From positions 1 through 46,149 of the forward strand of contig JANOHV010000188.1 of NCBI GenBank assembly GCA_031406795.1: DNA of 46,149 nucleotides. The letters run 5' to 3'. Position 1 is the first letter of the stretch; the number at the start of each line of letters is the position of its first letter. Below are positions 11,416 to 45,724 of the stretch, piece by piece. The translations under genes were made by a program, and so were the position numbers. Source of the DNA: Candidatus Rokuibacteriota bacterium (GTDB taxonomy: Bacteria > JAUVQV01 > DATDCY01). Under the pieces are notes generated by a model, which was not told where the DNA came from, ran no database searches, and saw only the letters and a list, made by a program, of their open reading frames with translations.

Positions 11416-11443
11416 ACTCATCCTCCTCAGTGCAAAAATACCT

Positions 11444-11463
11444 GACGCGTCCCGGGACGCGTC
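11444..11463. terminator. Perfect 20-bp palindrome (hairpin) between the two giant cytochrome genes; possible attenuator or mRNA-stability element
   Basis: GACGCGTCCCGGGACGCGTC is self-complementary. On the minus strand it is followed by AGGTATTTTT and then the RBS of the giant gene. Confidence 0.45.
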
Positions 11464-11492
11464 TGACTCGTCCTTCCCATGCCGCCCCATGC

Positions 11493-14400: not shown

Positions 14401-16541
14401 AAGACCACGGCATCGTCGGCGGTGGTGATTGCGGCGAGGGTCAGGTTGCCGGGGGTGGGGCTGGAGTCGACATAGGCCCTCTCCGTTGCGTCGGGGTTGC
14501 CGTCGCTGTCGACGTCGATCCACTTGCCAATCATGTAGAGGTTGCGCCCGGCACCGTTGAAGTTGGCCCCGTGCACGTTGTGGCACTGGCGGCAGGCGCG
14601 CGTGAACGAACCTTCCAGCGGAACGTAGCCACCGGCGGTATTGCTGTGGTGCGATTGGTCGAGGCCGTCCGCCACGGTGTCGACCCCGTTCTGGTGGCAG
14701 GCGTTGCAGGCCTGGTCGGGACCGGTGGGGTAGGTTGTCGAGGTGCCGATGCCCCCGCCGTTGATGGTGCTCTCCAGGCGCTTCGCGTCGCGAGGGTCGG
14801 TCGGCGCACTGTGGATCGACGGGAAGTGCATGCGCTCCGCGACGCCGGCGACGTATCTCGTGTTGTGGCAGACGATGCAATCCTTGGCGGCGCCGGCAGC
14901 ATTGTCGGGCGCGCCGGCGGTGCCGGGGGTCCCTACGGCGCCCCGGTCGTACACCGCTTTCACCGCACCAGGGAGGCCGACGCCGTGGCCGTTGACCTCG
15001 GCGCCGAAGCCGACCGCTGTCGACAAGCCGTTGCCCATCGCGTTGGGGGCGTACACGGTGCCGGCGACCGTCAAATCGGGGTCGATCTCGGAGGGCGTCG
15101 CGTCGTGGCACCACTTGCAGATCCTGATGTCGGCCGCGGCCGGGTTGTCGTAGGGGGTGTCGCCGTCGACCATGTCGGCTGTCCAGGTCAGGTCGCCGGC
15201 GTTGTCCGGTGGATCTCCGTGGCAGGCGAAATTCGCGCAGCGCTGGTCGCCGCCGCCCTTGGCCTTGAACTCGTATCCCGCCGGGAGCGTCTCGGAGCTG
15301 GCGGCTCCGGTGTACCTGGGGGCGCTTGCGCCGCTCCGTGTGTTGGTCGGGTCCCAGTAGGCGCCATCGCCCATGACGTCGACGTTCTGCCCTGGGTTGG
15401 TGCCCGGGAAGGTCCCGGCACCCTGGTTGTGCCAGGCCGCCGACCCCGCGTCGGGGCCGTGGCAGATTTCGCACTGGAAGATCGCGTCGCCGAGGGCGTC
15501 CTTGTGCCGCTGGTGGGCTCCAGCGCCGCCAGTGTAGTTCTCGACATCGGGACGCAGGACCCTGTCGAAAGAATTACCGCTGGCCTGGGCGATCGTCCGC
15601 AGCGGCGGGAACCCGTGACAATCCTCGCACGAGACGCTGATGCCGTTGTGCCGGTGGCATTGTGTGCAGGCGGTGGTCTTGGTGGAGAGGTGAGCTGAAA
15701 TCCTCGTGGTCGGCTTCGCGATGGTGGCGCTCCCGTAGGATGGCTTGACGGCGCTGAATGTCACCGCCTTATATGTCGTCTGCTCGGACGTCCCATGACA
15801 GGCGATGCAGAATTTTCTCGACTCGGCATCGTTCCGATCGTCGCTGGGGTCGGTATAGGCCATTCGCGTGCTGGCCCTCGTACCCGCGGGCACTTGCGGC
15901 GTCCCGGGCAAGTCTTCACGGATAAAGGCCTGGTACTTGGTGCGATGAGGATCGTGGCAGTCGGAGCAGGGGAGCTTGTCCCCTTGCGCGATCGACCCTG
16001 CCCCGGGGTTATTCTTGACATAGTGGCCGCTCTCGTAGGTCGAGGTGCCGCGCACCGTGCCCGAAGGAATGTTTTCGTAGTAGCCGGGTTTATCGTCGTT
16101 GTTCAACCCGTCACGGGGGTTGGTGGTCTCCATGTCGTCATCGAAGGCGACATCCTGAGGCGGTCGGGAGGTGTTGGGAAAGGTGTTGTCGGGAGGGTCG
16201 TTGTCTACTGTCGAATGGTTGTCGTGACAGTCGAAGCAGGCGATCGTGAATCCCCGCGCGTAGTTCGGATTCGACGTTTGGTCAAAAATGTCGTCTTCTT
16301 GTCCCAACCCCTTGAGTCCACGGGACCAGAGGACGTAGTCACTTTCCGCGGCGTGCGAAACATGGCAAGCGCCACAGGTGCCGCCCTTCGCCACGGTGCC
16401 GCCGCCCGAGAAGTCGTGCTTCGAGCCGGACACCGCGGTATCCGCCGCCATCGCGGCGCCTAGCCTCAGAAACACAAATACGGCGAGGCACAACGCGAGT
16501 GGCGCCCCCCGCCGAACAAAGTAAAACGGGGTTTTCATCAT
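11493..16541 (-). CDS. Large secreted multiheme cytochrome c, 34 heme motifs (CxxCH/CxxxCH/CxxxxCH)
   Basis: ORF track 1692 aa. Likely start MMKTPF at 16541 or 16538 after GGAGA; signal peptide ending ...LGAAMAA. 34 motifs counted from CGACH to terminal CLVCHI. OmcE-like N-terminus (GSKHDFS...CGACHVSH...LW...CFDCHD). Confidence 0.95.
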   Translation of the reverse strand: MMKTPFYFVRRGAPLALCLAVFVFLRLGAAMAADTAVSGSKHDFSGGGTVAKGGTCGACHVSHAAESDYVLWSRGLKGLGQEDDIFDQTSNPNYARGFTIACFDCHDNHSTVDNDPPDNTFPNTSRPPQDVAFDDDMETTNPRDGLNNDDKPGYYENIPSGTVRGTSTYESGHYVKNNPGAGSIAQGDKLPCSDCHDPHRTKYQAFIREDLPGTPQVPAGTRASTRMAYTDPSDDRNDAESRKFCIACHGTSEQTTYKAVTFSAVKPSYGSATIAKPTTRISAHLSTKTTACTQCHRHNGISVSCEDCHGFPPLRTIAQASGNSFDRVLRPDVENYTGGAGAHQRHKDALGDAIFQCEICHGPDAGSAAWHNQGAGTFPGTNPGQNVDVMGDGAYWDPTNTRSGASAPRYTGAASSETLPAGYEFKAKGGGDQRCANFACHGDPPDNAGDLTWTADMVDGDTPYDNPAAADIRICKWCHDATPSEIDPDLTVAGTVYAPNAMGNGLSTAVGFGAEVNGHGVGLPGAVKAVYDRGAVGTPGTAGAPDNAAGAAKDCIVCHNTRYVAGVAERMHFPSIHSAPTDPRDAKRLESTINGGGIGTSTTYPTGPDQACNACHQNGVDTVADGLDQSHHSNTAGGYVPLEGSFTRACRQCHNVHGANFNGAGRNLYMIGKWIDVDSDGNPDATERAYVDSSPTPGNLTLAAITTADDAVVFTATTGPDSFDENDGVYDQTGAADNDDICAACHVPATGGGAGTGGGNHSGSTAGIGELRGQDCMTCHDHDYDNITTTSDAFMPSGCSGCHGVPPPTNQYWPDGAGGTPLYADDNAGAHQNHVEAISRRVFGQTAAQLLLDANSSTKQRQICRYCHPNPGGGGHSTNSGDSRVDLYTASGPGNYFGRFSVGAEPLPPVAPVEDTTGAAYVPGAVNQGTCGNLVCHNQTTTPFWNTPPVWVESTLPNTTCSNLACHAVTTYTIAHDTHVDGAPIRFACTECHADNYTVSGTNPIPLAHGNGEVDMKWDNAGSLEAAHGSNGYYDKNNNTTADPAPTDTGFTYKTGGAAAADATYARSCYRVYCHGGDNNATYTPDWGGSGNTPNVKSPVWNLAATPLACTTCHAAPPPDGRHLAHDANGVLVPLKCGSCHTANNNKTDMTGHTATHVNGSVDMGGNATVYAYNPADGSCSNSCHLVTVATDGDWVDADPLACTDCHSATHIGPAPASGLHAATTALRHDFCPSCHLATAPSTTHLDGTTQNSTVPGTTYNWNTTDLNRPISYDNTGYVLVPPRTFCQATCHTDYPVVDSVPVTPSPWKRRWVGAMDAKPVATDNPGADVCDNCHGDGTGTLATWNLVEADATTTDHTDPYGGNTGDKMDRHSVCQTCHGWGHANYDRGWNGTAPAHGDGSITMNGPEPTTGAGYINVGTNAGGCAKACHAATLVLNTNSGWPVNYGDFGAGDCENCHDFDGPGPNVMGPGTNFNGVGTTPKPYDDGAWGYNVNGHGSNGSAPNAPTTALTPDKACTDCHSLLSHHLNGVIDGVTGRGNAVRHVNNYHLLTDGTYPFIVAGSNAWDVQVGFDLACYMRCHQPAGVSNMRHAKAEGVAANNLNNVLNAVRFGDKATVADGESIAYPVDSDISTLGSTAPDDFTPCISCHNPHGTAVTESGKNTNRMMRDKFQEQSTLCLVCHI

Positions 16542-16590
16542 CCGATCTCCCCTATGGGCATGGACTTGCAATCATAAAGAATCACGCCAC

Positions 16591-17870: not shown

Positions 17871-18479
17871 TTACCCGTCATCCGGAAGCGGCGCCCCCCC
17901 CACGCCCCCGATCTCGTGCCACTTCTCGAGCAGAATCTTTTTCGCGCGGAAGATCCTGATCTTGACCGTGCTCACCGGCAAGCCGAGGGTCTCGCCGATC
18001 TCCTGGTAGGAAAGCCCTTGAAAATAATGAAGGAGCAGGACGGTGCGGGCCGTGTCCGGCAGCTCCTGGAGGGCTTCGAGAAGCTTGAAATCTTCCTCGC
18101 GGCGGATGCACTGCGCCCGCGCGTTGTGGTCGATCGCACCCTCGATGTCCTTGGCGTCGACCGCCGACAGCACGTCGTCCAGGGGGACCTCGTGCGCGGA
18201 GCGCTGCTTCTTGAGCTCATCGATGCACAGGTTCTTCGCCACGGTGTAGAGCCAGGTCGAAAACTTGCGTTCCGGGTCATAGCTCTTGAGAAACTGATAG
18301 CAGCGCAGGAAAGTCTCCTGGGTCAGCTCCTGCGCCAGCTCGTAATTGCCGTAGAAGCGGTAGATGAAGTTGAAGATCGGTTTCTGATAGCGTTCCACGA
18401 GCACGCCGAACGCCTCCTGCTTGCCGCGCAGGACCTGGCGGACGACCTGGGCGTCTTCGAGGACGTCTGGCGTGTCCAT
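17871..18479 (-). CDS. ECF-family RNA polymerase sigma-70 factor
   Basis: Region 2 (AFGVLVERYQ...AQELTQETFL...FSTWLYTVAKNLCID) and region 4 (LSYQEIGETLGLPVSTVKIRIFRAK) motifs. Confidence 0.95.
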   Translation of the reverse strand: MDTPDVLEDAQVVRQVLRGKQEAFGVLVERYQKPIFNFIYRFYGNYELAQELTQETFLRCYQFLKSYDPERKFSTWLYTVAKNLCIDELKKQRSAHEVPLDDVLSAVDAKDIEGAIDHNARAQCIRREEDFKLLEALQELPDTARTVLLLHYFQGLSYQEIGETLGLPVSTVKIRIFRAKKILLEKWHEIGGVGGAPLPDDG

Positions 18480-18481
18480 GC

Positions 18482-20407
18482 TCAGTACTTCTCGCGCGGG
18501 TGGCAGGAGTAGCAGGTCGAGGTGTAATTGATGGCGGGGTGGATGGCCTTGGGGTCTTTGTTCGTGCTTTCAACGAGTTCGAGGATGTAATACCCGCTCC
18601 CGGTCCGGGCCTCGTGAGCCCGGTGGCAGGAATCGCAGTTGATGTGCCCCGCTGGGGTCGCGGTGATCGGCGGCGCGGGCTCTCGCCCCAGGGTCGCGAC
18701 CCGGGCAGTCATCAGCGGATGCGTGTGGCCCTTCGGCCCCGCCCCGGTCCCGGGCGCCTCGCCGTGGCAGCCGGTGCAGAGGTAGGCCCCCTCGTCGTCC
18801 GCCCACTCCACGGAATTGCCGGACCGGGCCACGAGGAAGCGGCTTTTCCCGTCGTCGCCGGAGGCGACCGACCCGGAGCGGAAGGCGTGGCAGGAGAGGC
18901 AGATCATGACTTGGCCCTTCTCTCCGCCGTAGACGGAGAGGAGCTTGGACCCGGGCCAGGGCATCAGCCGCAAGGGGGGGGTGGCATCCTGGTAGGTCTC
19001 GGAAAGGGTCGGATCGCCGAGAAAGTGGCTGGCCCGGTACTCCGGCCGCTCCCCGCAGGTCGGGTTGTCCGCCGGGTGACAGCGCAGGCACAGATCGTCG
19101 CTCAGAAGCGAGTCCCGCAGCAGAGGGACGTAGTCCTTCTCCCGCTCCGCTCCGAAACCAGCGTTGTGCGCCCGGTGACAGTAATCACAGGTGCGACGCA
19201 TGCCGGTGACCGGGTCGTTCAGCGCTGCCTGGTCCGCGCAGGCACCCGCGCCCTTTTCGACGAGGGGGTGGTGATACGCCAGGGGCAGGCGCTCGTGGCA
19301 CACCTCGCAGAACCCCAGCTCGGCCGGCGGCGGGCGCAAGATCGATGTGCGCTCCCTGGCTCCGTGGGCGCGGTGACACGTCGAGCAGAGAATCGGGTTT
19401 CCGGCCGCCGCTCCCAGCGGCCACCCTTCCGGATTGCGCGTTTCGACGATGCTCCCTGCACCGTTGGACAGATCGTTGTCCGCAGGGTGGTAGGTCCGAC
19501 CCGTCGTCGTCCCGCCCGGGTTCGGACGCAGAGGATCCTTCTGGCCATCCCCCCGCTCTCCCGTGTGGCAACCCTCACAGAAAAGGTCGGCCTCCTGGCG
19601 CACCGGGTCGGCGGCGAGCAACCCCGCCGAGGCGCGCGGGGGTGCCTCCTCGTCCCCGTGAACGGCGTGGCACGTCACGCAGCCGATCGTTCCCGTCCCC
19701 CCCGACGAGAGGTGCCCCCCCAGGTCCCAATGAGTCCCGACGCTCGCGCGACCGCCAGCCAGGGGGTAGGATGCGGGGAACGGCGTCATGAACGCCGGCG
19801 CGACCTTGAGCGGGACATCGTTGCGGGCAAGGGTGGCCGGATTCGCACCCTGGGGATGGTTGCCGGTGGCGTTCTGATCGGCGAGGCCGAACTCGCTCTG
19901 CGCGGAGTGGCAGCTCAGGCAGATCTCGCCGATGTCGGCGCGCAGCATCGGCCGGTGGCCGCTGTCGTGAGGATCGTGACAGGTGACGCAATCCATGCGC
20001 TTGCCGTCCAGGAATGGCAATCCGGCAGTGTCGTTATCCCCGAGCAGCCCCTCGTACCCCGTCAGGTCCGATCCGTGCGACGCCGGGTGGAATGCGGTCC
20101 GGCTGGCATCGACCTCGGGGCTGACGATGGTCGTGCCGTCGTGACAGGAGAAACAGACAAGACTCGAGGCGCTGTAGGAAAACTCCAGGATCGGCGGGAC
20201 CGCGCGGAAAAAATCCTGTTGGGCCGGCGACGTTGAGATGTGGCAGCGGCGGCAACGCTCCTGGAGCGGCGAGGCCTTGGCCACGTCGTACCCCTGCGCG
20301 ATCAGGTCGTGCGGGCTGCCTTCGATCGCCCCGCGCGCCGGCGCCCCGACGAGAACGAGTATGAGTACGAGCAGACGGGCCTTTTTCAGCGGCCGGCTAG
20401 GGCGCAT
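18482..20407 (-). CDS. 14-heme cytochrome c (doubled-CXXCH type), paralogue 1
   Basis: Signal peptide; AIEGSPHDL start; 14 CxxCH from CRRCH to CYSCH, mostly as CxxCHxxH...LCxxCH pairs. Confidence 0.93.
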   Translation of the reverse strand: MRPSRPLKKARLLVLILVLVGAPARGAIEGSPHDLIAQGYDVAKASPLQERCRRCHISTSPAQQDFFRAVPPILEFSYSASSLVCFSCHDGTTIVSPEVDASRTAFHPASHGSDLTGYEGLLGDNDTAGLPFLDGKRMDCVTCHDPHDSGHRPMLRADIGEICLSCHSAQSEFGLADQNATGNHPQGANPATLARNDVPLKVAPAFMTPFPASYPLAGGRASVGTHWDLGGHLSSGGTGTIGCVTCHAVHGDEEAPPRASAGLLAADPVRQEADLFCEGCHTGERGDGQKDPLRPNPGGTTTGRTYHPADNDLSNGAGSIVETRNPEGWPLGAAAGNPILCSTCHRAHGARERTSILRPPPAELGFCEVCHERLPLAYHHPLVEKGAGACADQAALNDPVTGMRRTCDYCHRAHNAGFGAEREKDYVPLLRDSLLSDDLCLRCHPADNPTCGERPEYRASHFLGDPTLSETYQDATPPLRLMPWPGSKLLSVYGGEKGQVMICLSCHAFRSGSVASGDDGKSRFLVARSGNSVEWADDEGAYLCTGCHGEAPGTGAGPKGHTHPLMTARVATLGREPAPPITATPAGHINCDSCHRAHEARTGSGYYILELVESTNKDPKAIHPAINYTSTCYSCHPREKY

Positions 20408-22001
20408 CGATCAACTCCCGGATCTGGAGGCGGGACGCGAGCCGCTCGGCGACATAGATGCGGTTGTCCGCCCCGAGCGCCACCCCGTTGGGCGAGCCAA
20501 GATCGAGCGGGCGGCCGGTTTCGTCGCCGAGAACCGCGACAAACCGCCCCTCGGCGTCGAAGACCTGGATCGTGTTGAACCAGGAATCGGCGACGTAGAT
20601 CTCCCCGGCGGCGCTGACGGCGACCCCTTTGGGTCGGCCGAAACCGCCGGGCCCGCGCTCGGCGCGGCCAAATGCCCGCACGAACTCCCCCGCTCCGGAG
20701 AAGACCTGAATCCGGGCGTTCAGGCAGTCGGCGACGACAAGGCGCCCGGCGGCATCGACTGAGCAGAATGTCGGTGACGAAAACTCCCCGCCCTGTGCGC
20801 CGGCCTGGCCGAACGTTTGCGGTGCGCCCTCGCCACCGACGATCGACACCTGGTTGTTGTAGTTGTCGATCACATAGAGGCGGCCATCCGGCCCGAGTGC
20901 GACGTCGATCAGGCCGGTGGCGGCGAGGTGCCCCTTTCCGGAAAGCTGGACGCGGCGGCCGGGCCGCCCCTGGGAGTTGAAAACCTGGACGGCGCCGGCC
21001 CCGGCGTCAGCGACATAGAGGTTTTCGTCCCGGTCCGTCGCCAGACCCAGGACCTTCTTGAAAATGCTCCCGCCGCCCTGGCCGCCCCCGATGGTGCGCT
21101 GGAAGACGCCGCCGGAGGTGTACACGAAGACCAGATTGCGCCCCGAGTCGGCGAGGTAGACGTTCTTGCTCACCGGCCCGACCGTCACGTCCGCCGGCCT
21201 TTCCAGCGCGAGCCCCCCGCCCTGGCCGACGACAGCGACCAGCCGGGTTCGCCGCACACGCCAGGCGCTCGCGGGCCGCTGCGCCTCGGGCAGGGGGACC
21301 GCACGCGCGAACGTCACGGAAAGCTCCTGCGAGTAAGCGGTTTCGCGGAACGCCGAGTCCAACGCCGTGAGCACGTAGACGTACGACCGGCCCGGCTCAA
21401 CACCTGCGTCGTGATAGCTCTTCCCGCGCGAAGAACCGACGATCCGGAACTCGGTTTCGGGGGGGCTCTTGCGGTAGATGTTCCAGGCGATCACGTCTTC
21501 GCCCTCGCGCTCAGACCACTTGAGGCCGACGCCGTCGTCAACCACCAGGTAGCCTTCCCAATCCGGAGGCGCTGGGGAGCGCAGGGTCACGACGCCGATC
21601 CGGACGACAAGTTCGGACGAGGATCGTCCTTCCCTGCCGTCCGGGCCGACGCCCATCAGCCGGTAGTAGTAGGTCCGCCCCGGCGTGACCGTGTCGTCGA
21701 CCCAGACGTTCTCCCTCGTCTCGCCCACCATCCGAAACGGGACCTGCGGCGCGTCTTCCCGCCGAAAGACTCGCACCATCGGCAGAGTCGGGGAGCGTAT
21801 CCAGACAAGTTGGGCTTTTCCGCGCGCGTCCGTGCCGCCGACCCACTGGGGCGCCGCAAGCACCTGAGCAACGGGCGCAGGCGACACCCTGCCTCCAGAC
21901 GCGACCTCGCCACCAAGCGCGCCGATCGGCACAGACCCGGCGATAATGACGAGTCCGAGCAGCCAGGAAACGACTCGTTCGTACCGGAACATTCCTCTCA
22001 T
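20397..22001 (-). CDS. Fibronectin-III + NHL-repeat beta-propeller protein, paralogue 1
   Basis: Two FN3-like repeats (DDTVTPGRTYYYRL; DAGVEPGRSYVYVL) followed by NHL repeats (RPADV..NVYLADSGRN; GRPKGVAVS..EIYVADS). Start uncertain (22001 or 21992). Confidence 0.88.
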   Translation of the reverse strand: MRGMFRYERVVSWLLGLVIIAGSVPIGALGGEVASGGRVSPAPVAQVLAAPQWVGGTDARGKAQLVWIRSPTLPMVRVFRREDAPQVPFRMVGETRENVWVDDTVTPGRTYYYRLMGVGPDGREGRSSSELVVRIGVVTLRSPAPPDWEGYLVVDDGVGLKWSEREGEDVIAWNIYRKSPPETEFRIVGSSRGKSYHDAGVEPGRSYVYVLTALDSAFRETAYSQELSVTFARAVPLPEAQRPASAWRVRRTRLVAVVGQGGGLALERPADVTVGPVSKNVYLADSGRNLVFVYTSGGVFQRTIGGGQGGGSIFKKVLGLATDRDENLYVADAGAGAVQVFNSQGRPGRRVQLSGKGHLAATGLIDVALGPDGRLYVIDNYNNQVSIVGGEGAPQTFGQAGAQGGEFSSPTFCSVDAAGRLVVADCLNARIQVFSGAGEFVRAFGRAERGPGGFGRPKGVAVSAAGEIYVADSWFNTIQVFDAEGRFVAVLGDETGRPLDLGSPNGVALGADNRIYVAERLASRLQIRELIDAP

Positions 22002-22078
22002 TGTTGCACGCCACCACAAGCGCCGCAAGCGCTCGTTATCCAGCCCTTCAGTCGAGCCACGCGAGCGTGCCGTGAACC

Positions 22079-22107
22079 TTGACAACGGGTGACGTTGTCT
22101 ATATGTT
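22079..22107 (+). promoter_or_regulatory. Sigma70-type promoter overlapped by an inverted repeat
   Basis: TTGACA-17 nt-TATGTT. GACAACG-N5-CGTTGTC lies within it, flanked by GTGAAC/GTTCAC. Confidence 0.6.
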
Positions 22108-22165
22108 CACAAAGTTAGGGCAGGTACGCCCATGGCGCAGAACCAGCCGGGAAGGACGGAGAACA

Positions 22166-22699
22166 ATGTCAAAACTCAAAATGCTTCCGGCCACAGCATC
22201 CCTTCTCGGCGCGCTCCTGCTCGGGATGGTTGTCTGGCCGGGGGACGCAGCCGCCCTCAAGGAAGGCGAGACCTTCCCCCACTTCGCCGGTCAGGATCTC
22301 AACGGCGTTGCTGTGGACACCAAAACCTTCGCAAAGAAGCTGCTGCTGATCGACTTCTGGTCGGTCTACTGCTCGAGCTGCATCCAGGAGATGCCCCACA
22401 TCGTCGCGCTGTACACGAAATACAAGGACCAGGGCCTGCAGTGTATCGGTATCGACCTCGACCCGATGATGCCGCCGGCGAAGGTCAGGAAATTCCTCGA
22501 GGGGCAAAGCTTCCCGATGCCCTACCCGAACATCCAGGACAACAAGCGCCAGATCATGAGCCTGCTCGGGGTGAGCATGCTGCCGACGACCATACTCGTC
22601 GATCCGGCGGGCACGGTGCGTCTCTTCCACGTCGGCTACAAACCGGGATTCGAGAAAGAACTCGAAGCGATCGTCAAAAAGCTCCTCCCGGCGAAGTAG
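22166..22699 (+). CDS. TlpA/ResA-like thioredoxin-fold protein (CSSC)
   Basis: Signal peptide; LLIDFWSVYCSSC...EMP; cis-Pro motif MLPTTILVD; GGAGA RBS before ATG 22166. Confidence 0.9.
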   Translation: MSKLKMLPATASLLGALLLGMVVWPGDAAALKEGETFPHFAGQDLNGVAVDTKTFAKKLLLIDFWSVYCSSCIQEMPHIVALYTKYKDQGLQCIGIDLDPMMPPAKVRKFLEGQSFPMPYPNIQDNKRQIMSLLGVSMLPTTILVDPAGTVRLFHVGYKPGFEKELEAIVKKLLPAK

Positions 22700-22746: not shown

Positions 22747-23274
22747 ATGAGAACCACACTCCGTAGTCTCGCCGCTGCTCTCGTCGGCGCCGCTCTGCTG
22801 TTCGCGGCGGCTCCGCTCCACGCCGTCGATGCGGATCTGCTGCCGGTCGGCTCGCTGGCGCCGGGCATCGAGGCGGTCGACACCGACGGAAAGGCCTTCA
22901 CGCTGGCCGAGGCGATCAAGGAGAAGCCGGTGCTGCTGGTCTTCTGGTCGCTGTTCTGCGGCACCTGCCGCGACGAACTGCCGATCCTTGAGCAGGAGCA
23001 GCCGAAGTACGCGGATAAGGTGCAGATCGTCACCATCAACCTCGACGAAGCGCCGCGCGCGAAGACCGTGAAAGGCTTCGCCAAGCAGCAGGGGTTCACC
23101 TTCAGGATGCTGCTCAACAAGATCGACGGCAAGGAGTTCCTGATCGACCAGAGCTACCAGATCAAGGCCACGCCGGCGCTCTATCTTGTGAAGAAGGACG
23201 GCACGATCGCCTACGGCCACTACGGCGCGCTCAACCCCGAGGAACTGGCCGACGTCATCGCGAAGGCGAACTAG
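22747..23274 (+). CDS. TlpA/ResA-like thioredoxin-fold protein (CGTC)
   Basis: AAAGGA RBS, MRTTLRSL signal peptide, VLLVFWSLFCGTC..ELP, KATPALYLV. The ORF track over-extends the 5' end to 22132. Confidence 0.9.
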   Translation: MRTTLRSLAAALVGAALLFAAAPLHAVDADLLPVGSLAPGIEAVDTDGKAFTLAEAIKEKPVLLVFWSLFCGTCRDELPILEQEQPKYADKVQIVTINLDEAPRAKTVKGFAKQQGFTFRMLLNKIDGKEFLIDQSYQIKATPALYLVKKDGTIAYGHYGALNPEELADVIAKAN

Positions 23275-23277
23275 CGA

Positions 23278-23811
23278 ATGGGTTCCAGCTCAACGGCGGG
23301 CTGCCGCCGGCGCGGCATGACGGCAGCCCTCGCCGGGTTCGCGGCGATCCTGCTGCTTGCAGTCCCCGTGCCGGCCGCGCTGCACGCCGACGAGTTGAGC
23401 AGCGTCGACCAGGAAATCGTCGATGCGCTGCGCGAGAGCATCATCGCCGGATACCAGGAGTGCAACGCCGAGAAGGTCCTGTACCTGTACGACGCCGAGG
23501 CCCAGATCGCCACGTTCACCCGCGGCGTGCTCGACAAGGGCTCCTTCGGCTCCCTGCTGCGGGAAACCATCGCGCAGAACACCGCGATGGCGGCGACCCT
23601 CGAAGTCGGCGCGGCGACCATCGAGGGGGACGAGGCGCTCGTGCCGCTGCACCTGATCCTCGAGGGCACGGACGCCGGCGGGAACCGCAGAGTCACGAAG
23701 GACCGGCTGTTCTGCCGCCTCAGGAATCGGGGCACCTGGAAGATCCTGATGCAGACGTATCGCAGGGATTTCACCCTGCCCCCTGTCGCACCCCCCGGCG
23801 TTCATCACTAG
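23278..23811 (+). CDS. Exported NTF2/SnoaL-like (DUF4440-type) protein
   Basis: Signal-like segment, then helix...LY..EA.I...beta strands ending GTWKI, the typical NTF2-fold pattern. Start may be 23317. Confidence 0.6.
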   Translation: MGSSSTAGCRRRGMTAALAGFAAILLLAVPVPAALHADELSSVDQEIVDALRESIIAGYQECNAEKVLYLYDAEAQIATFTRGVLDKGSFGSLLRETIAQNTAMAATLEVGAATIEGDEALVPLHLILEGTDAGGNRRVTKDRLFCRLRNRGTWKILMQTYRRDFTLPPVAPPGVHH

Positions 23812-23835
23812 CCAGGTCTCGGGATCCGTGCCTCT

Positions 23836-25020
23836 TCAGAGGCGACGCTTGATGATCTTGAGCTTATCCTGAATCCAGCCCGCTTCCTTCTCCGCGTGGC
23901 AGCGCTGGCAGTTCTGCTCGAGCGTCAGGGGCTTGGGGAACTTCACCTTTTCGAACGTCCAGGCGTGCGTGGGCGTCTTCGTGAGCCGCTCGTCGCCGGG
24001 CTCGTGGCACTCGCCGCAGGCGACTTCGGGCTGCGAAAAATCAAATTGGTGGTCGTGGATCGTGTAGCGCGTGCCGTCCGCGACGGTCTGCGTCTGGTGG
24101 CAATCGTCGCACTTCACGGTCCCCGGCGCGTGCTTCGCGTGCTTCTCGATCTCCTTGTCGTACTTGTAGTGGCAGGTCGCGCAGTACTCGTCCTTCGTGT
24201 AGTAGCCTTCCTCCGCATCCTGCGGAGCCGCGACCCCTCAGACGCCGCACGCTCGTTTTTTCGAGTAGAACTCCGCCTGGTAGAACATGAACATCCGGTG
24301 GCGGTCCTCGTAGGTCGAGTTACCCTTGTACCACTTCTTCGAGCCGGGTTTCGGCAGGAAGAAGTCGGTGTAGTACTTCTCGATCGGCTGGCCGGGCTGG
24401 AAGCCGGCGGCGAAGGGGAACATCCCGTCGACCAGGTCGTTGCCGTCCGTGTGGCAGGACTCGCAGATGTTGTCCGCCAGCCGCTTGGCGATCTTCGCCG
24501 GGTTCACGATGTCCGCCGGGTCCTGGCTCCCCGCGTGCTTCTGCCCCGGGCCGTGGCAGGCCTCGCAGCCGATCGAGTCCTCGGCCATGGTCTTGCTCAC
24601 CGGGTCGAAGCCGACGGTGTGGCAGCCGTAGCAGTTGAGCGAGTACGGCTTGTTGCGCCAGTTGAAGATCGAGTACGGCTCCCAGTCGCCCTTGGTGAAG
24701 CTCCAGTACTTCGGCAGGACGTAGAACTGGCCGTCGATCACCGTCAGGTACTTCTGCAGCCAGTGCGAGCCGATCGTGTGCGTGATGTCCTTCTTGCGGA
24801 ACGGGATCTCGGGGCTGAACTTCTCGGCGGCGATCGCGTCCGGGTGCTCCTTGACGTCGCGCAGCATGCGGGCGTGCGGCGACATGCTCCACTGCTTCCA
24901 GAGCTGGGGGTGGCACTCCTGGCACGCTTTGGAGCCGGCGTAGCCGGGCAACCCGGCAGCAGCGGCGGCGGCGGGAGAAGCAAGGGCGAGGAGAATCGCC
25001 AGGGAGCCGGCGACGTTCAC
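23836..25020 (-). CDS. Probable selenocysteine-containing 8-heme cytochrome c (c554/c552-like N-terminal domain), 394 aa, Sec261
   Basis: GTG start overlaps the upstream TGA (GTGA). ORF-track pieces 24238-25521 and 23836-24117 share one frame, joined across a single TGA at 24238-24240 (RACGV-U-GVAAPQ...YCATCH). Four CxxCH lie before and four after the TGA, and a SECIS-like hairpin follows it. Confidence 0.8.
24211..24240 (-). promoter_or_regulatory. In-frame UGA plus bacterial SECIS-like stem-loop
   Basis: UGA GGGGUCGCGG CUCCGCA-GGA-UGCGGAG: a perfect 7-bp stem with a G-containing apical loop beginning 17 nt after the UGA. Confidence 0.72.
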
Positions 25021-25580
25021 TTCTTCTTTGCGGGCTGGGCTTCGAGCAGCTGGTCGAAGACGTCCACAATCTCCGGGGGATAGTCCACGTAGTCCCCGAC
25101 GTGGTCGTAGACGATGATGCCCGACAGGTCGATGACCACCTTGTAGGGGATCGGCCCCGAGAGCTGATAGATCTCGGTGGCGACCTTGGTGTCCTTGTCG
25201 ACGAGGATCGGATAGGTCACGCCCTTCTCCCGGACGACCTTCTTGATCCCGGCGATGTTCTCGTCGAGGGCGATCCCGAAGAACTCGACGCCCTTGCCCT
25301 GGTACTCCTGGTAGACCTTCTGGAGGATGGGCATCTCGCGCTTGCAGATGTTGCACCAGGTGGCCCAGAAGTCGATCATCACGATCTTCTTGCCCTTGAG
25401 GTCCGAGAGCTTCCAGGTCTTGCCGTCGAGATCCTGCAGCGTGAAGTCGGGGGCCGGCTGGCCCTTCTTGAGCTTGGAGCCGTCGAGCAGCGCCGAGGCC
25501 GGCGTCGCGACCGCAAGGCACAGCGCGAGCACGAAGGCCGCGAGGCCCGCTGACCGACGGGTGAGCGCTTGTATCGCCAT
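25017..25580 (-). CDS. TlpA/ResA-like thioredoxin-fold protein (CNIC)
   Basis: APDFTLQDLDGK...IDFWATWCNICKREMP; signal peptide from MAIQAL at 25580. Confidence 0.92.
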   Translation of the reverse strand: MAIQALTRRSAGLAAFVLALCLAVATPASALLDGSKLKKGQPAPDFTLQDLDGKTWKLSDLKGKKIVMIDFWATWCNICKREMPILQKVYQEYQGKGVEFFGIALDENIAGIKKVVREKGVTYPILVDKDTKVATEIYQLSGPIPYKVVIDLSGIIVYDHVGDYVDYPPEIVDVFDQLLEAQPAKKK

Positions 25581-25620
25581 GCTCGACTCAGACACCGCGC
25601 ACGTCGCCTGGTTCCCGGGT

Positions 25621-26175
25621 CTAGCTGCCCAGTGCCGCCTTGACGGCGTTCTCATACGCTTTTTCGGTGCCCTTCTCGAAGCCGGTGTGGATGTAGGTGA
25701 TCACGCCCTTCTTGTCGATCACGATGGTCAGCGGCACCAGGAAGTTCGTGTATGTGTCGGTGATCGCGAAGTCCGGGTCGGTCATCAGCGGGTACGTGAC
25801 GTTGACCTGGACCTCCTTGAGGGTGTCGATGACCGTTTGGGCGTCGACGCCGTCGGTGTCGATCCCGAGGACCGCGAGGCCCTTGCCGGCATAATCCTTG
25901 GCGATCGTCTCGAGGTACGGCATCTCCTCGAGGCAGGCACCGCAGCGCAGCCCCCAGAAGTTCAGCAGCACGACCTTCTTGCCCGCGAACGAGGAGAGCT
26001 TGATCTCCTTGCCGGCCAGGTCCTTGGCGACAAACTCGGGAGCCTTGTCCCCGGGCTTGAACTTCTGATCGCCCATGCCTTCAGCGGCGAGGGGCGACGG
26101 CGCTCCCGCGACAAGGAGGGCAAACAGCAGCGAGAAACCCGCGAGCCGGTACCGGAAACGATGTCCTCCGAGCAT
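25621..26175 (-). CDS. TlpA/ResA-like thioredoxin-fold protein (CGAC)
   Basis: GAGGAGG RBS; APEF...VVLLNFWGLRCGACLEEMP; LVPLTIVIDKKG. Confidence 0.92.
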   Translation of the reverse strand: MLGGHRFRYRLAGFSLLFALLVAGAPSPLAAEGMGDQKFKPGDKAPEFVAKDLAGKEIKLSSFAGKKVVLLNFWGLRCGACLEEMPYLETIAKDYAGKGLAVLGIDTDGVDAQTVIDTLKEVQVNVTYPLMTDPDFAITDTYTNFLVPLTIVIDKKGVITYIHTGFEKGTEKAYENAVKAALGS

Positions 26176-26285: not shown

Positions 26286-27293
26286 TCACGGGGCGTTTCG
26301 CGCCACCCGGAAGCCGATGAAGTCGCTCTTGTTCTGGCGGTAGTACGAAGTAGCGCTCGCGACCTGGGCATTATCGGCGACGGATTGCCACGAGCCGCCG
26401 CGCAGGGCGTAGGTGGCGCCGCTCGATTCCCGCCAAGAGGTAGAGGTCCACTCCAGGACGTTTCCGGTCATGTCGAAAAGACCGAGCCCGTCCGGCTCAT
26501 AGCTGCCGACGGGCGCCGTGTGCTGGTGTCCGTCGTCGTGCCCGGCGAGGAGCCCAACCCCTCCCCAACCGAAAATGCCTTGGACCTCTTCGCCGGCGAG
26601 GTTCCCCGATCGTTTCCCCTCCGGCGCCCCGCTGCCCCAACTGAAGGTCGCCCACCGTGCGCCGTTTCCGGCGGCTAACTCCCACTCCGCCTCGGTGGGC
26701 AGCCGCACGCCCGCCCACGCGCAGAATTCCTGGACGTCGTCCCAGGAGACACAGACCACCGGATGGTCGTCCCTCTGCGGGAAGCCCGGGTCCCGCCACG
26801 TCACGCCTCCTCGGGCCTCCCAATAGCCGGCCTTCTGAAGTTGACGGCACCCCCCGGCCCTCTCGGCATCGGTCCGGTACCCCGTAGCCTCGACGAACGA
26901 GCGAAATTGTCCTACGGTGACCTCGTGCCGCCCGAGGAAAAATCCCGCCACCCGTTCGGGGTGCTGGTCGACCACGCCCCCCCTGGTCTGCATCTCGAAC
27001 TCACCGCCCGGGATGGAGACAAATTCCAGGCCGATCCGCTGCCAGAGCGCTGCGAGACGCCGCCGCTGCTGCTCGGCGCTCTCCGGGGCCACGGAAGGCT
27101 TCGTTGCCACCCCCCCCGCGTCCTTTGAGGCCGTCGCTCGAACAGCAGTCGCTGGCAACTTGCCGGAGTCCACGCTGGATCCGGCAACGCCGGGCTGGTC
27201 AGTGGCACACCCGGCACCGAGTCCCAGCGCCAATACTATCGCGCACAACGTCCCCCCAGCCGCCGCCCCGCCGCGTCCCCGTTGACTTCTCAT
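26286..27293 (-). CDS. Formylglycine-generating-enzyme family (SUMF1/EgtB/PvdO fold) lipoprotein
   Basis: Lipobox LGAGC; HEVTVGQF, HPVVCVSWDD, RLPTEAEWE, GLFDMTGNVLEW, RGGSW and GFRVAR motifs. Confidence 0.9.
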   Translation of the reverse strand: MRSQRGRGGAAAGGTLCAIVLALGLGAGCATDQPGVAGSSVDSGKLPATAVRATASKDAGGVATKPSVAPESAEQQRRRLAALWQRIGLEFVSIPGGEFEMQTRGGVVDQHPERVAGFFLGRHEVTVGQFRSFVEATGYRTDAERAGGCRQLQKAGYWEARGGVTWRDPGFPQRDDHPVVCVSWDDVQEFCAWAGVRLPTEAEWELAAGNGARWATFSWGSGAPEGKRSGNLAGEEVQGIFGWGGVGLLAGHDDGHQHTAPVGSYEPDGLGLFDMTGNVLEWTSTSWRESSGATYALRGGSWQSVADNAQVASATSYYRQNKSDFIGFRVARNAP

Positions 27294-32511: not shown

Positions 32512-34152
32512 ATGGGTAACATGTCGGGGTCTGACGCGCATCACGCGCGCGTGCGCATGACGGTCGGCGGTATCGTTGCTGCCTTGGTCCTCTGCCTCGC
32601 CGCCGCACCGCTCGCCGCACAGGGGCTCAAACTCGACACCGCCAAGGAGAAGGAAACCGACATCTACGACAGGAGCAACCCCCACAGCGACCTGGAATGC
32701 ACCGAGTGCCACGAGGGGACGCCCCCCGACGGCGCAACCGCCGCGACCGTGAAGTTCAAGAACGGCGAGAAGGGGAACGTGGATCTCTGCTTGACCTGCC
32801 ACGACGCCTCGGACAACGTGCACCCGATCAACGTCGATCCCGCGAAGGTCACCCCGAAGATCGACGTCCTGCCGATGTTCCCGCTGGAGCAGACCGGGGC
32901 GCTCAAGGGGACGGTCGTCTGCTCGACTTGCCATTTTATCCACACCAAGACGGCCGGGCTGAAGCTGCTGCGCGGCTTTCCGGCCTCGTCGGACCCCGAG
33001 GACATCGCGAAGGCGAAGTTCAAGGACCGGCGCGACCTCTGCCGCGCCTGCCACGGCGACGGCCTCAAGGACAAGAGCCCGCACAAGGGCAAGGGCGGCG
33101 CCGACGGCGTGAAGAAGAGCTGCTCCTTCTGCCACGGCAAGGAGCCGAAGGAGGGGGAGAAGGTCAAGTTCACCAAGAACCCCGTCGAGCTGTGCGACTT
33201 CTGCCACGCTGCCACGCGCGGCGGGCACTTCCTGCTCGTGAACCCCTTCGCCGACCCCAACCTCAAGGACGAGATCGCGAAGGCGGACCTGCCGATGATC
33301 GGTGGGGACTTCACCTGCGTCTCCTGCCACAACCCGCACGGCAGCACTGGCGAGGAGAAGTTCCTGCGCAAGGAGTTCGTGGCGCTGGCGCTCAAGTCGG
33401 CCCGCGTGCGGCCGCACTTCATGAAAGCCTTCTGCGAAGCCTGCCACAAGGTGCGCCCGAAGTTCGCCAAGGGCGAGCCCGGGGCGCAGCCGCTTTCGGA
33501 GATTCCGCTGCGCAACGAGGACCCGAACGAGCTGTGCAACCGCTGCCACGAGTCCGGGCTCTCGAAGTCCAACGCCCACCCGATCAAGGAGGTCACGGGC
33601 ATCTACAAGGACCGCATCCCGAAGGACTGGCCGCTGTACAAGGGGGTGCTGACCTGTCTGAGCTGCCACACGGGCGGCGACTCGCCGGTCTACGATCGCG
33701 AGAACCCGAACTTCCTGCGCGGCGCGCCCTACAAGACCCGCAACGAGATCTGCTGGAAGTGCCACGTCCAGACGGAGTTCTCCTCCCTCAACCCGCACGA
33801 GAAGATCAACAACCTCGAGGGGTGCGAGTTCTGCCACCAGACCAAGCCGGACATCGCGAAGCTCAAGGCGGGGATCACCCAGCAGGTCAAGTTCAAGGGC
33901 GACATCGTGCTGCTCTGCATCCGCTGCCACGAGTCGTTCCCCCACCCCTCGAGCGTCGACCACACCGGCAAGCCGGACGCCGACATCATGGAAGCCAAGA
34001 AGATCAAGATCCCTAAGGACCTGCCCCTGGACATCCTCGGCCGCGTGACCTGCGCGACCTGCCACAACCCGCACGCCACGGGGGAGTTGCGTGGTGTCGC
34101 CGGCGGGATGTCGATGTCGATGATGCTCTGCTCGAAGTGCCACCCATTCTAG
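32512..34152 (+). CDS. 15-heme cytochrome c, Lys-rich, probably periplasmic
   Basis: Signal peptide (...LAAAPLAAQ); 15 CxxCH from CTECH to CSKCHPF. Exact start uncertain (32512, 32521 or 32557). Confidence 0.93.
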   Translation: MGNMSGSDAHHARVRMTVGGIVAALVLCLAAAPLAAQGLKLDTAKEKETDIYDRSNPHSDLECTECHEGTPPDGATAATVKFKNGEKGNVDLCLTCHDASDNVHPINVDPAKVTPKIDVLPMFPLEQTGALKGTVVCSTCHFIHTKTAGLKLLRGFPASSDPEDIAKAKFKDRRDLCRACHGDGLKDKSPHKGKGGADGVKKSCSFCHGKEPKEGEKVKFTKNPVELCDFCHAATRGGHFLLVNPFADPNLKDEIAKADLPMIGGDFTCVSCHNPHGSTGEEKFLRKEFVALALKSARVRPHFMKAFCEACHKVRPKFAKGEPGAQPLSEIPLRNEDPNELCNRCHESGLSKSNAHPIKEVTGIYKDRIPKDWPLYKGVLTCLSCHTGGDSPVYDRENPNFLRGAPYKTRNEICWKCHVQTEFSSLNPHEKINNLEGCEFCHQTKPDIAKLKAGITQQVKFKGDIVLLCIRCHESFPHPSSVDHTGKPDADIMEAKKIKIPKDLPLDILGRVTCATCHNPHATGELRGVAGGMSMSMMLCSKCHPF

Positions 34153-40879: not shown

Positions 40880-41458
40880 CTACTTCGTATTGGCGAGAGC
40901 CTCGAGGAGCGCCTTGCTTTCGCCAGCCTGGAAACCGCTGCTCTTGAAGGCGATATTCCCGTCCCTGCCGATGACGAGCGTCGCCGGGGTCGCGCGGAAG
41001 CCGTACTTCAGCGCGGACGCGAAGTCTTTGTCGTGGAGCATCGTGAAGTCCGGGTGGCTGTACGAGTCGTTGTAGTTCTGGAGATTGTTTTCGTTGAAGT
41101 CGATGCTCACGACGTAGACCGCCGTGTCCTTGATCGAACCCTCGGTCTGGGCCTTCTTCAGCTCGGTGATCTCGGCCAGGCAGGAGGAGCAGCTCGAGGA
41201 GAGCCAGACGAAGAGCAGCTTCTTCTTCTTGAGCTCGGCGGAGAGAACGAAGTCCTTCTTGTCCTCGAAGTTCTTGATGGTGAAGTCGAGCGCCGGCTGC
41301 CCGATCTCAAAAGGCTTCACGGCCTTGACGGCGGGTGCCGCCGCTGCAGGTGCCGGGGCTGCAGGTGCCGCGGCGGGCGGGGCCTGCGCAAACGCAATCT
41401 GGGCGGACAGAAGACCGATCGCGGCGGTACAGGTAACAACGTTCTTCCAGGCGTTCAT
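40880..41458 (-). CDS. TlpA/ResA-like thioredoxin-fold protein (CSSC)
   Basis: Signal peptide, Pro/Ala linker, ALDFTI...LFVWLSSSCSSC, RATPATLVIGRDG. Confidence 0.88.
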   Translation of the reverse strand: MNAWKNVVTCTAAIGLLSAQIAFAQAPPAAAPAAPAPAAAAPAVKAVKPFEIGQPALDFTIKNFEDKKDFVLSAELKKKKLLFVWLSSSCSSCLAEITELKKAQTEGSIKDTAVYVVSIDFNENNLQNYNDSYSHPDFTMLHDKDFASALKYGFRATPATLVIGRDGNIAFKSSGFQAGESKALLEALANTK

Positions 41459-43816: not shown

Positions 43817-43957
43817 CGTTCCCTCCCAGTTTACCCGGTTTACCCGTCTTGCCATGTCTGCCTTAAACCTTCCGCCGCCGTGCGCGGCGGCACCAAACCC
43901 CGGCTCACCTCCCCTCCTCCACCACCTCCTTGCGTTCCCAAAACTCCCTGTTAACCG

Positions 43958-45583: not shown

Positions 45584-45649
45584 CACAGCCTCGTTCCTCC
45601 CTCTGCCCGCGCTGTACGGGCCATTAGTGAACTGCAAGCGTAGGGAGGC

Positions 45650-45678
45650 AGTGTAAAATCCCCGTCTGTTCGTGTCAA
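45650..45678 (-). promoter_or_regulatory. Sigma70-type promoter
   Basis: TTGACA-17 nt-TACACT on the minus strand. Confidence 0.6.
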
Positions 45679-45724
45679 GAGACCGTTCTTCAATCACGTT
45701 TTGTCCTCCGTCGCTTCCTTAGTA

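Follow-up and report, generated by a model that had tools for sequence, protein, structure and literature searches.

What does an in-frame TGA mean in the middle of a multiheme cytochrome gene, at the place where related proteins carry a heme-binding motif? The question is raised by the 46,149-nt contig JANOHV010000188.1 of assembly GCA_031406795.1 (Candidatus Rokuibacteriota bacterium), the whole of which is the window analysed here and to which all positions refer. The gene concerned lies on the minus strand at 23836..25020, and very probably encodes a selenoprotein, with selenocysteine (Sec) as residue 261. To judge from its sequence, the product belongs to an uncharacterised family of periplasmic multiheme c-type cytochromes of approximately 400 residues, related to the nonaheme cytochrome OcwA.

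The in-frame TGA and its reading as selenocysteine

The features on which this reading turns are as follows.

23836..25020, minus strand: whole cytochrome gene, 394 codons plus TGA stop, GTG start, eight CxxCH motifs and one CxxU
24238..24240, minus strand: in-frame UGA, read as selenocysteine 261; TGA or TGC/TGT at the same column in relatives
24198..24240, minus strand: candidate bacterial selenocysteine insertion sequence (SECIS), with a lower stem that includes the UGA and an upper hairpin (minimum free energy, MFE, structures)
24227-24211, minus strand: upper hairpin of 17 nt, CUCCGCA-GGA-UGCGGAG, beginning 10 nt past the UGA; G in the apical loop

When the gene is translated with TGA read through, the TGA at codon 261 is the sole internal stop of a 394-codon frame. 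It stands in the context C258-G-V-U261-G (...SKKRACGV-U-GVAAPQDAEEGYY..., or in longer form ...FYSKKRACGV-U-GVAAPQDAEEGYYTKDEYCATCH...), and the product has a predicted signal-like N-terminus and eight CxxCH motifs, beginning at residues 33, 130, 152, 186, 280, 304, 335 and 371. The first-pass annotation of this DNA had described two in-frame cytochrome fragments separated by this single TGA, a CATCH motif missed by both called pieces, a perfect hairpin 10 nt past the UGA and translational coupling to a CxxC redoxin gene; each of these points is borne out by the translation of 23836-25020, the listing of open reading frames (ORFs) and the sequence itself. Under translation table 11 the gene is split into 24238..25521 and 23836..24117 (both on the minus strand), and since the second piece first starts at a GTG 41 codons past the TGA, the CATCH motif (residues 280-284) falls in neither. 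Translation of the cytochrome most likely begins with the GTG at 25020, where it overlaps, as GTGA (25020-25017), with the TGA that ends the redoxin gene upstream. A window-wide scan for in-frame TGA codons preceded as well as followed by a coding signal of high third-position G+C had two hits, this site and an antisense artefact inside the giant gene at 1-11613. The whole arrangement of TGA, hairpin and downstream frame exceeds chance, and it recurs in 17 loci.

The genome to which the window belongs (G000; 278 contigs, 99.9 % complete) holds all four of the genes selA, selB, selC and selD, on whose presence the first-pass annotation had made its reading depend. A selA gene (541 bits) lies at the end of contig C93. 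For selB, only the C-terminal 423 model positions are present, at the start of contig C88, the gene being split by the contig end; this part carries the SelB winged-helix and beta-barrel domains. The selD gene (351 bits) has an in-frame TGA of its own in the context TCG-U-AAKL, and the tRNA-Sec (69 bits) has the anticodon TCA. The organism uses selenocysteine. In addition, two genes of this genome score above the curated cut-off for the ExtKL/MccSep selenoprotein family (458 and 364 bits), each with one in-frame TGA in the context AGHRIPDG-U followed by a hairpin.

G000:C271:2837-4048, plus strand: ExtKL/MccSep gene
G000:C153:2664-3773, minus strand: ExtKL/MccSep gene

The apical loops in these two genes and in selD start approximately 20-23 nt downstream of the UGA, and that of the window gene 17 nt downstream; bacterial SECIS loops are placed 16-37 nt from the UGA.

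Relatives carry either Sec or Cys at the same position. Among the six genomes by which the phylum is represented in our collection, the orthologue in G003 (same genus, 78 % identity) has TGA at the same codon, and that in G005 (same class, 59 % identity) has TGC at the site; G001 (78 % complete), G002 (88 %) and G004 (92 %) gave paralogue-level matches only, at 38-41 % identity. The selA gene of G005 (G005:C7:192371-193572) lies in five pieces in different frames, and in G001 (G001:C15:1268775-1269726) selA and a cytochrome paralogue are each split, the paralogue also having one TGA. Both genomes have few contigs and low completeness. Because G005 is a 10-contig assembly and the same pattern is seen in G001, the broken selA was put down to a likely indel error and a loss of the Sec trait in G005 was rejected.

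A protein database search gave 236 proteins at E <= 1e-10 among 8000 scored candidates, and 120 of them are listed. Among these listed matches, 15 are shorter than 300 residues; 13 of the 15 break off exactly at ...R-[AS]-C-[GN]-[VI], so that the Sec column would be the next residue, while P0099 looks frameshifted and P0112 stops earlier. The other 105 are full-length and have Cys at the Sec column, in the motif R-A-C-[ED]-V-C-G-F-D-R-G. The codon itself was compared in 70 sources (66 loci from one metagenome scan together with the window, L023, L024 and L043), where it is TGA in 17 and TGC or TGT in 36, 17 sources not extending to the site or not matching the search pattern. The search for homologues with Cys or TGA at position 261 thus found both, in one alignment column. 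What follows also differs, for TGA is succeeded by G-V-A-A-P-Q-D-A in 17/17 loci and Cys by G-F-D-R-G or variants of it. The 133 codons past the UGA are of equal length and keep four CxxCH motifs in all nine complete Sec forms, and their differences are mostly at third positions (28, 28 and 47 at positions 1, 2 and 3 between L023 and the window).

A FastTree phylogeny was built from 114 sequences, rooted on paralogues and distant forms; it leaves out Sec loci whose C-terminus is incomplete and database proteins shorter than 370 or longer than 450 residues. All 12 full-length Sec forms fall into one clade (support 0.992), its sister consists of seven Cys forms including that of G005 (support 0.985), and both are nested among Cys forms. 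Since the Sec clade is monophyletic and so nested, Sec arose from Cys once in the family.

The TGA is found in 17 separate assemblies. The codon is also bridged by contigs from X6, which is a DNA run belonging to another study (piece 24230-24331), and from two RNA-library runs, X15 (24055-24426) and X16 (24164-24292 and 24210-24288). The best-supported differences listed for these three runs include positions 24235, 24257 and 24258 and none at 24238-24240, so that the read-level check suggested for this codon gave no alternative letter. As an RNA library can contain DNA, the bridging contigs are no proof of transcription. Run X2 (share 0.97) gave short unrelated pieces only and is not informative for the codon.

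A hairpin stands at the same place in all 17 TGA loci. Its GGA loop begins 17 nt after the UGA in 16 of them; in L056 a synonymous CCU/GCU pair breaks the usual register, giving an alternative 8-bp stem CUCCUCAG-GAUG-CUGAGGAG at the same position. On 11 distinct sequences 92.1 % of the hairpin cells are paired, and the mean 48-nt MFE is -17.7 kcal/mol in Sec loci against -12.8 in 35 Cys loci. At the Asp codon that supplies the loop-closing U, GAT is used in 17/17, as compared with 32/369 Asp codons elsewhere in the Sec genes, and the Pro codon in the hairpin is CCG in 16/17. Position, stability and codon choice speak for selection on the RNA; because the loci are related, the hairpin and codon counts are not independent events. 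With the Sec machinery, the pairing of Sec and Cys at one column and the hairpin fixed in every TGA locus, the selenoprotein claim of the first-pass annotation is upheld.

Relation to OcwA and the place of the CxxU motif

Pfam places the cytochrome in general multiheme families only (Cytochrom_c3_2, Cytochrome_C7 and Cytochrome_C554), and none of the seven NCBIfam families reported at E <= 0.01 exceeds its cut-off. The scores were 64.5 against 275 bits for UshA-like NF041198, where the match covers only the multiheme tail of the model, 58.9 against 325 for GSU2203 and 22.7 against 250 for ExtKL NF040886 (24.4 in the genome search); TIGR04315 (OTR octaheme), NF041027 (GSU2204) and NF049981 (UshA-like 2) gave no NCBIfam match at E <= 0.01. 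An UshA-like, an OTR and an ExtKL/MccSep identity were all rejected on these results. The protein is therefore not ExtKL, as the first-pass annotation had supposed, and the two true ExtKL/MccSep genes lie elsewhere in the genome.

Of the solved structures, OcwA of Thermincola potens (PDB 6I5B) is the best relative, and it is matched by phmmer with E 2.4e-11 and by the family profile with E 8.4e-28 over profile positions 27-396. An AlphaFold2 model of the Cys form P0002, made with 87 relatives, has a mean predicted local distance difference test score (pLDDT) of 86.9 and a predicted template modelling score of 0.81, and it resembles OcwA in fold (Foldseek E 1.4e-12; VIA Z 16.5, root mean square deviation 2.6 over 208 residues). 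The VIA Z values for OmhA (6QVM), MccA (4RKM) and NrfA (2J7A) are 9.5, 5.7 and 2.9. According to PMC9250108, OcwA, OmhA, MccA and c554 are one clade, MccA and c554 being without an equivalent of OcwA heme 5. By sequence and fold the protein belongs to this clade, and the earlier label of a c554/c552-like architecture can be narrowed to OcwA/MccA-like. Clustered at 50 % identity, the family comprises one cluster (P0067) and a truncated Sec-form representative (P0078), while representatives of the superfamily number 218 at E <= 1e-30 and 10,466 at E <= 0.001.

In both the phmmer and the profile alignment, each of the eight CxxCH motifs has its counterpart in OcwA, at hemes 1-4 and 6-9, and C258-x-x-C/U261-G pairs with C-L-K-C-H of heme 5 (the OcwA numbering offset of 29 was derived from the alignment and a passage of PMC6703420). 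The family segment E-R-H-R-M (239-243) matches the OcwA heme-2 pocket (H281/H282) by profile alignment, and the family-invariant H322, in I-H-D-H-K, likewise corresponds to OcwA H381. The window gene thus has, in order along the protein:

24910..24924, minus strand: heme motif CQECH, residues 33-37, aligned with OcwA heme 1
24619..24633, minus strand: heme motif CYGCH, residues 130-134, aligned with OcwA heme 2
24553..24567, minus strand: heme motif CEACH, residues 152-156, aligned with OcwA heme 3
24451..24465, minus strand: heme motif CESCH, residues 186-190, aligned with OcwA heme 4
24292..24306, minus strand: conserved segment D-R-H-R-M, residues 239-243, H241 aligned with OcwA H281 in the distal pocket of heme 2
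24238..24249, minus strand: C258-G-V-U261 motif, corresponding to the family invariant R-A-C-[ED]-V-C-G and to the CxxCH of OcwA heme 5
24169..24183, minus strand: heme motif CATCH, residues 280-284, aligned with OcwA heme 6, lost by table-11 ORF calling
24097..24111, minus strand: heme motif CDDCH, residues 304-308, aligned with OcwA heme 7
24046..24060, minus strand: I-H-D-H-Q, residues 321-325, invariant H322 aligned with OcwA H381, non-ligating, above heme 5
24004..24018, minus strand: heme motif CGECH, residues 335-339, aligned with OcwA heme 8
23896..23910, minus strand: heme motif CQRCH, residues 371-375, aligned with OcwA heme 9

A scan of the genome collection with a Cys-only alignment kept 80 loci at 22-72 % identity, of which 79 match the family profile. 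In the aligned column (hmmalign) 52 of the 79 have CxxCH, 14 have CxxC with G, K, Q, L or a gap as the next position (L185 and L191 among them being probably misaligned CxxCH) and 13 have something else; the forms nearest to the cytochrome family are those with CxxC and no His. Alignment of the family profile with 20 heme-retaining relatives by hhalign (probability 100, E 1.4e-78) sets C-E-V-C-G on C-x-x-C-H, and the heptaheme paralogue of the same operons has R-x-R-C-E-V-C-G-I-H at the equivalent place. Four alignments (phmmer, family profile, hmmalign and hhalign) hence agree with the earlier suggestion that the CxxU sits where related proteins have CxxCH. The His of the heme-5 motif is gone throughout the family and both cysteines are kept (R-A-C-[ED]-V-C-G), being invariant in more than 100 sequences and in the paralogues. 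We consider it highly likely that the CxxU derives from a heme motif; the order of events would be CxxCH to CxxC to CxxU, with probably no heme attached at the CxxC/U.

The site concerned is that of a catalytic heme in OcwA and NrfA. Heme 5 of OcwA, which is penta-coordinated, can be superimposed on the NrfA catalytic heme and has His380/His381 over its distal face, and octaheme cytochromes have been suggested to arise through loss of heme 2 or heme 5 (PMC6703420). Heme 2 is a penta-coordinated active-site heme in OcwA, c554 and MccA (PMC6703420; PMC9250108).

Redoxin neighbours and the proposed chemistry of the CxxC/U site

Four thioredoxin-fold genes flank the cytochrome gene in the window.

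25017..25655, minus strand: group A TlpA/ResA-like redoxin, WATWCNICKRE; Pfam AhpC-TSA and Redoxin; its stop overlaps the cytochrome start
25621..26175, minus strand: group B redoxin, GLRCGACLEE, upstream of group A
22079..22699, plus strand: group C redoxin, SVYCSSCIQE, convergent with the cytochrome gene
22747..23274, plus strand: group D redoxin, SLFCGTCRDE, likely start ATG at 22747

All four have CxxC; the group A protein scores 121.9 bits against the NCBIfam ResA subfamily, under the cut-off of 170. The same subgroups recur beside Sec and Cys forms of the cytochrome (WATWC[ND]ICKRE, GLRCGACLEE, S[VI]YC[SA]SC and S[LIF]FCG[TP]CR), and a fifth group, TTACSAC, occurs in Cys-type operons. 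Upstream sequence of 700 nt or more was available for 36 loci, and 33 of them (10/10 Sec forms and 23/26 Cys forms) have a redoxin ORF on the same strand that ends no more than 1.5 kb away. Orthologues of group A stand directly upstream in every one of the 10 Sec-form loci whose flank is long enough, and in the majority of Cys-form loci. For the genome-collection sample, flanks of approximately 3 kb contain a redoxin ORF in 7/14 loci with CxxC without His, 2/52 with CxxCH and 1/13 of the others. The association with CxxC redoxins first noticed in the window is therefore a conserved synteny, and one specific to the His-less forms. As the redoxin groups follow phylogeny, we regard it as conserved clade synteny across several phyla and not as independent co-evolution.

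That Cys was changed to Sec suggests that residue 261 does redox or nucleophilic chemistry; taken together with the missing His, the terminal heme site and the redoxin neighbours, this points to a selenylsulfide centre. Cys258 and Sec261 would form a redox-active selenylsulfide (a disulfide in the Cys forms) in the former catalytic pocket, which keeps the invariant His322, the equivalent of the distal His381 of OcwA. The bond would be reduced or oxidised one electron at a time via the neighbouring hemes of the C-terminal NrfA-like tetraheme module, and its exchange partners would be the CxxC motifs of the group A redoxin and of the paralogues of that redoxin. Such exchange would link the periplasmic heme network to thiol-disulfide chemistry or, alternatively, to sulfur/selenium substrates. 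The loss of this heme leaves the heme chain uncut, the site being that of a terminal catalytic heme at the end of a branch (PMC6703420). MccSep, in which a His/Cys-ligated heme works with the Sec of another domain, shows that a heme chain can drive Se-S/S-S chemistry (PMC13510729). We judge a heme-fed selenylsulfide that works with the neighbouring redoxins to have an even chance or slightly better. The full proposal is more tentative and falls somewhat short of that: the NrfA-type catalytic heme of an ancestral nonaheme cytochrome would have been replaced by Cys-x-x-Cys and then, in one clade, by Cys-x-x-Sec, and this heme-fed centre would constitute, with four to five dedicated TlpA-like redoxins, a DsbD/CcdA-independent periplasmic pathway from the respiratory heme network to the thiol-disulfide chemistry of proteins or of low-molecular-weight compounds.

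A number of observations tell against the selenylsulfide proposal or against its parts. The energy of the hairpin is ordinary for the local G+C content: the 60-nt fold of -16.8 kcal/mol has z = -0.65 and is equalled or bettered by 47 of 200 shuffles. On the 11 distinct sequences, which are very alike (93 % column identity), no pair is changed on both sides and shuffles equal the observed covariation values; synonymous-site conservation over the 14 codons past the UGA (0.866) is not above that of the rest of the gene; and an Rfam scan of 23700-25200 at E <= 10 gave no SECIS family and one chance small-RNA match. The hairpin on its own is weak evidence. The loss of the heme is read solely from the missing His, and the AlphaFold2 model contains no hemes and has a local pLDDT of 67-79 near the CxxC. 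The upstream redoxin gene is missing in 3/36 loci (L083, L091 and L092), half of the CxxC-without-His loci (7/14) and not more have a redoxin ORF inside 3 kb, and since the relatives are not independent, the synteny may be clade inheritance. TlpA-like proteins are also known in another role, SirH being a maturation factor for an atypical heme site (PMC6976685), and the window is full of multiheme cytochromes that need maturation factors. Finally, four DsbD_TM/CcdA-type matches in G000 mean that a conventional reductant for the redoxins exists. A genome without DsbD/CcdA, which would favour a replacement pathway, is ruled out by the same matches, and the proposed pathway would have to be an additional one.

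The main rival is an MccSep-like reductase of small sulfur/selenium compounds. The protein would still be a selenoprotein, with its Cys/Sec acting on polysulfide, tetrathionate, thiosulfate or selenite and the redoxins being accessory; one of these two residues may then ligate a neighbouring heme axially. MccSep itself reduces polysulfide and selenite with a heme-ligating Cys and a Sec (PMC13510729). Two MccSep genes suggest that this genome invests in Sec-dependent sulfur chemistry, and the Arg-His-Arg-Met at the OcwA heme-2 pocket position could bind anions, leaving room for a second, heme-based active site. But the conserved non-motif histidines H49, H86, H162, H241, H294, H297, H322 and H324 are enough to ligate eight hemes with no help from Cys, no rhodanese or sulfur-carrier gene adjoins the cytochrome in the window, and the tight, specific pairing with several redoxin subgroups would go unexplained. 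We take this rival to be unlikely, with an appreciable minority share of the probability.

It is improbable that the CxxC/U serves as a metal site, either for Cu(I), which MccA binds, or for an Fe-S cluster shared between two subunits. Metal ligation by Sec is known from [NiFeSe] hydrogenase and formate dehydrogenase. MccA is of the same clade, is also without heme 5 and holds its active-site Cu(I) by two cysteines (PMC9250108), but these (C399 and C495) are approximately 100 residues apart and at heme 2, a different site (PMC9250108). The match to MccA is weak (E 0.0027-0.014 over approximately 45 residues, VIA Z 5.7), the family has no further conserved Cys outside its heme motifs, and a metal site would not account for the redoxin synteny.

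An atypical heme site without His, comparable with CxxCK in NrfA and CX15CH in SirA/MccA and with the redoxins as its maturation factors, is very improbable, even though the CxxC/U is homologous to a heme motif and atypical heme sites are accompanied by a dedicated TlpA-like SirH (PMC6976685). Four to five redoxin subgroups exceed maturation needs, and no CcmF/NrfE-type heme lyase gene stands beside the cytochrome in 15 annotated loci. To our knowledge there is no precedent for a selenoether link to heme, which counts against this explanation as well. A candidate considered for a lyase was a 635-residue polytopic membrane protein encoded directly past Cys-type genes:

L058:6180-8087: 635-residue polytopic membrane protein
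L061:6174-8084: the same
L067:4531-6441: the same
L071:6195-8102: the same
L099:4948-6855: the same

This protein has several hydrophobic stretches but neither a Pfam match nor a conserved Cys motif, and glycosyltransferase genes come next, for which reasons a role as dedicated heme lyase was rejected. No homologue of it is found in the window at E <= 1e-3; an ORF downstream of the G005 orthologue is weakly similar.

That the TGA is an ordinary stop, leaving two genes (one for a tetraheme protein of 260 residues, one for a small cytochrome from the C-terminal part) or a decaying one, is hardly credible: table-11 calling does split the gene, as in 13 database entries among the matches listed, and the hairpin is not significant alone, but the first possible start 41 codons past the TGA would cut a conserved heme motif, the stretch between the pieces is kept in frame in 17 loci, the column is Cys in 105/105 full-length relatives among those matches, the 133 downstream codons show a coding pattern with no indel in 9/9, and the organism reads UGA as Sec elsewhere (selD and the MccSep genes).

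The wider surroundings are rich in cytochrome genes. A NapC/NirT-like cytochrome (L058:1367-2194, E 3.3e-07) is likewise encoded in Cys-type operons, as is the heptaheme paralogue, which lies two to three genes upstream of the Cys-type octaheme gene with a redoxin gene of its own adjoining.

L058:2751-3869: heptaheme paralogue, seven CxxCH
L071:2748-3884: the same
L099:1511-2635: the same; the paralogue is also found in L061, L067 and L089

In the window, a gene similar to those for the formylglycine-generating enzyme (FGE-sulfatase; 26286-27293, minus strand, E 1e-51) stands beside the redoxin cluster, and the same FGE-like gene does so in a 77 %-identical Sec-form locus (L043:1129-2157). An ORF of 177 residues (23278-23811, plus strand), with a signal-like N-terminus and no Pfam or NCBIfam match, separates the group D redoxin gene from the 3' end of the cytochrome gene. 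A giant multiheme cytochrome frame at 1-11613 (minus strand), cut by the window start, encodes at least 3871 residues with 70 CxxCH and 13 CxxxxCH motifs; a second one at 11493-16571 (minus strand) encodes 1692 residues with 26 CxxCH. Three repeated pairs of a 14-CxxCH cytochrome and an NHL-repeat beta-propeller are found at 18482-22085, 34334-38172 and 41591-45697, a pairing also seen in L043 and L089, and a 15-heme cytochrome lies at 32512-34152. The cytochrome island further holds:

17871-18479, minus strand: ECF sigma factor
39211-40857, minus strand: PPIC-type peptidyl-prolyl isomerase
40880-41458, minus strand: fifth, more distant redoxin

Comparison with known systems

Among the cytochrome-related families in a 2026 review of prokaryotic selenoproteins are ExtKL, GSU2204, two UshA-like families and OTR octaheme (PMC13188914, in excerpt). 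No description of the present family as a selenoprotein family was found in the literature searched on selenocysteine or selenoproteins and multiheme or octaheme cytochromes; the supplementary tables of PMC13510729 and PMC13188914 could list it. Standard annotation hides the Sec forms, at least 13 database clusters being called as proteins of 250-277 residues. Since Sec marks the second cysteine as reactive, the whole Cys-type family may be argued to have a thiol-based active site at the place of a heme. If the proposed pathway is true, this would be the first heme site turned chalcogen redox centre, and multiheme selenoenzymes would have a second class, unrelated to the first. The fixed pairing with TlpA-type redoxins gives a handle on whether periplasmic thiol-disulfide systems can be wired to multiheme electron chains, which is of relevance for sediment and groundwater bacteria with very large cytochrome sets.

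OcwA, a cell-surface reductase, is the closest solved relative, with heme motifs 1-4 and 6-9 matching one-to-one and the heme-5 distal His381 corresponding to H322. It binds heme 5 via CLKCH, has no Sec, is 526 residues long and resides on a Gram-positive cell wall, whereas the window family has CxxC-G or CxxU-G instead of the ninth CxxCH and approximately 400 residues. The octaheme sulfite reductase MccA/SirA (4RKM) belongs to the same clade and, in the heme table of PMC9250108, agrees with the window cytochrome in its set of hemes, the OcwA heme-5 position being empty. Cysteines act in its active site also, those that bind Cu being at heme 2 (PMC9250108). However, MccA has approximately 700 residues, its similarity to the window cytochrome is a weak, short N-terminal sequence match, and the latter has no CX15CH. 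The pentaheme nitrite reductase NrfA is matched over the C-terminal four hemes (profile E 6.4e-09 to 1e-05), and the CxxC/U falls, via OcwA, at the position of its catalytic heme 1 (PMC6703420); in NrfA that heme is bound by CxxCK, and VIA Z is 2.9.

Thioredoxin-fold selenoproteins with CxxU or UxxC, such as the ResA-like WAxxUGC family NF041054, likewise have a CxxU motif, Cys homologues and a periplasmic thiol-disulfide setting. In the window, Sec resides in a multiheme cytochrome and not in a thioredoxin fold, and the thioredoxin-fold neighbours are all CxxC.

The nearest parallel in kind is MccSep/ExtKL of Geobacter sulfurreducens (GSU2937-2936; NF040886; PDB 9wt8 and related entries), described in 2026 and the only multiheme cytochrome selenoprotein characterised. 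It is likewise a periplasmic multiheme c-type cytochrome with one Sec; both have an in-frame UGA followed by a hairpin, and both occur as Sec-type and Cys-type homologues. Sec stands beside the heme chain together with a cysteine in MccSep and, as proposed here, in the window cytochrome. MccSep has five hemes, an immunoglobulin-like domain and its Sec in a P-D-G-U loop of the C-terminal domain (PMC13510729), so that five CxxCH and a D-G-U-P loop contrast with the eight CxxCH and C-G-V-U-G of the window cytochrome, and phmmer relates the latter to 9wt8 only with E 0.012 over 36 residues. Their histories also run in opposite directions, Cys forms having arisen inside Sec clades in MccSep (PMC13510729), whereas the window family has a Sec clade inside Cys forms. 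With its other fold relationship and other Sec context, the window gene is a second case beside MccSep. It represents a new family of selenoproteins and, among multiheme cytochromes, a second selenoprotein type unrelated to the first; its hallmark is a heme motif turned CxxU centre.

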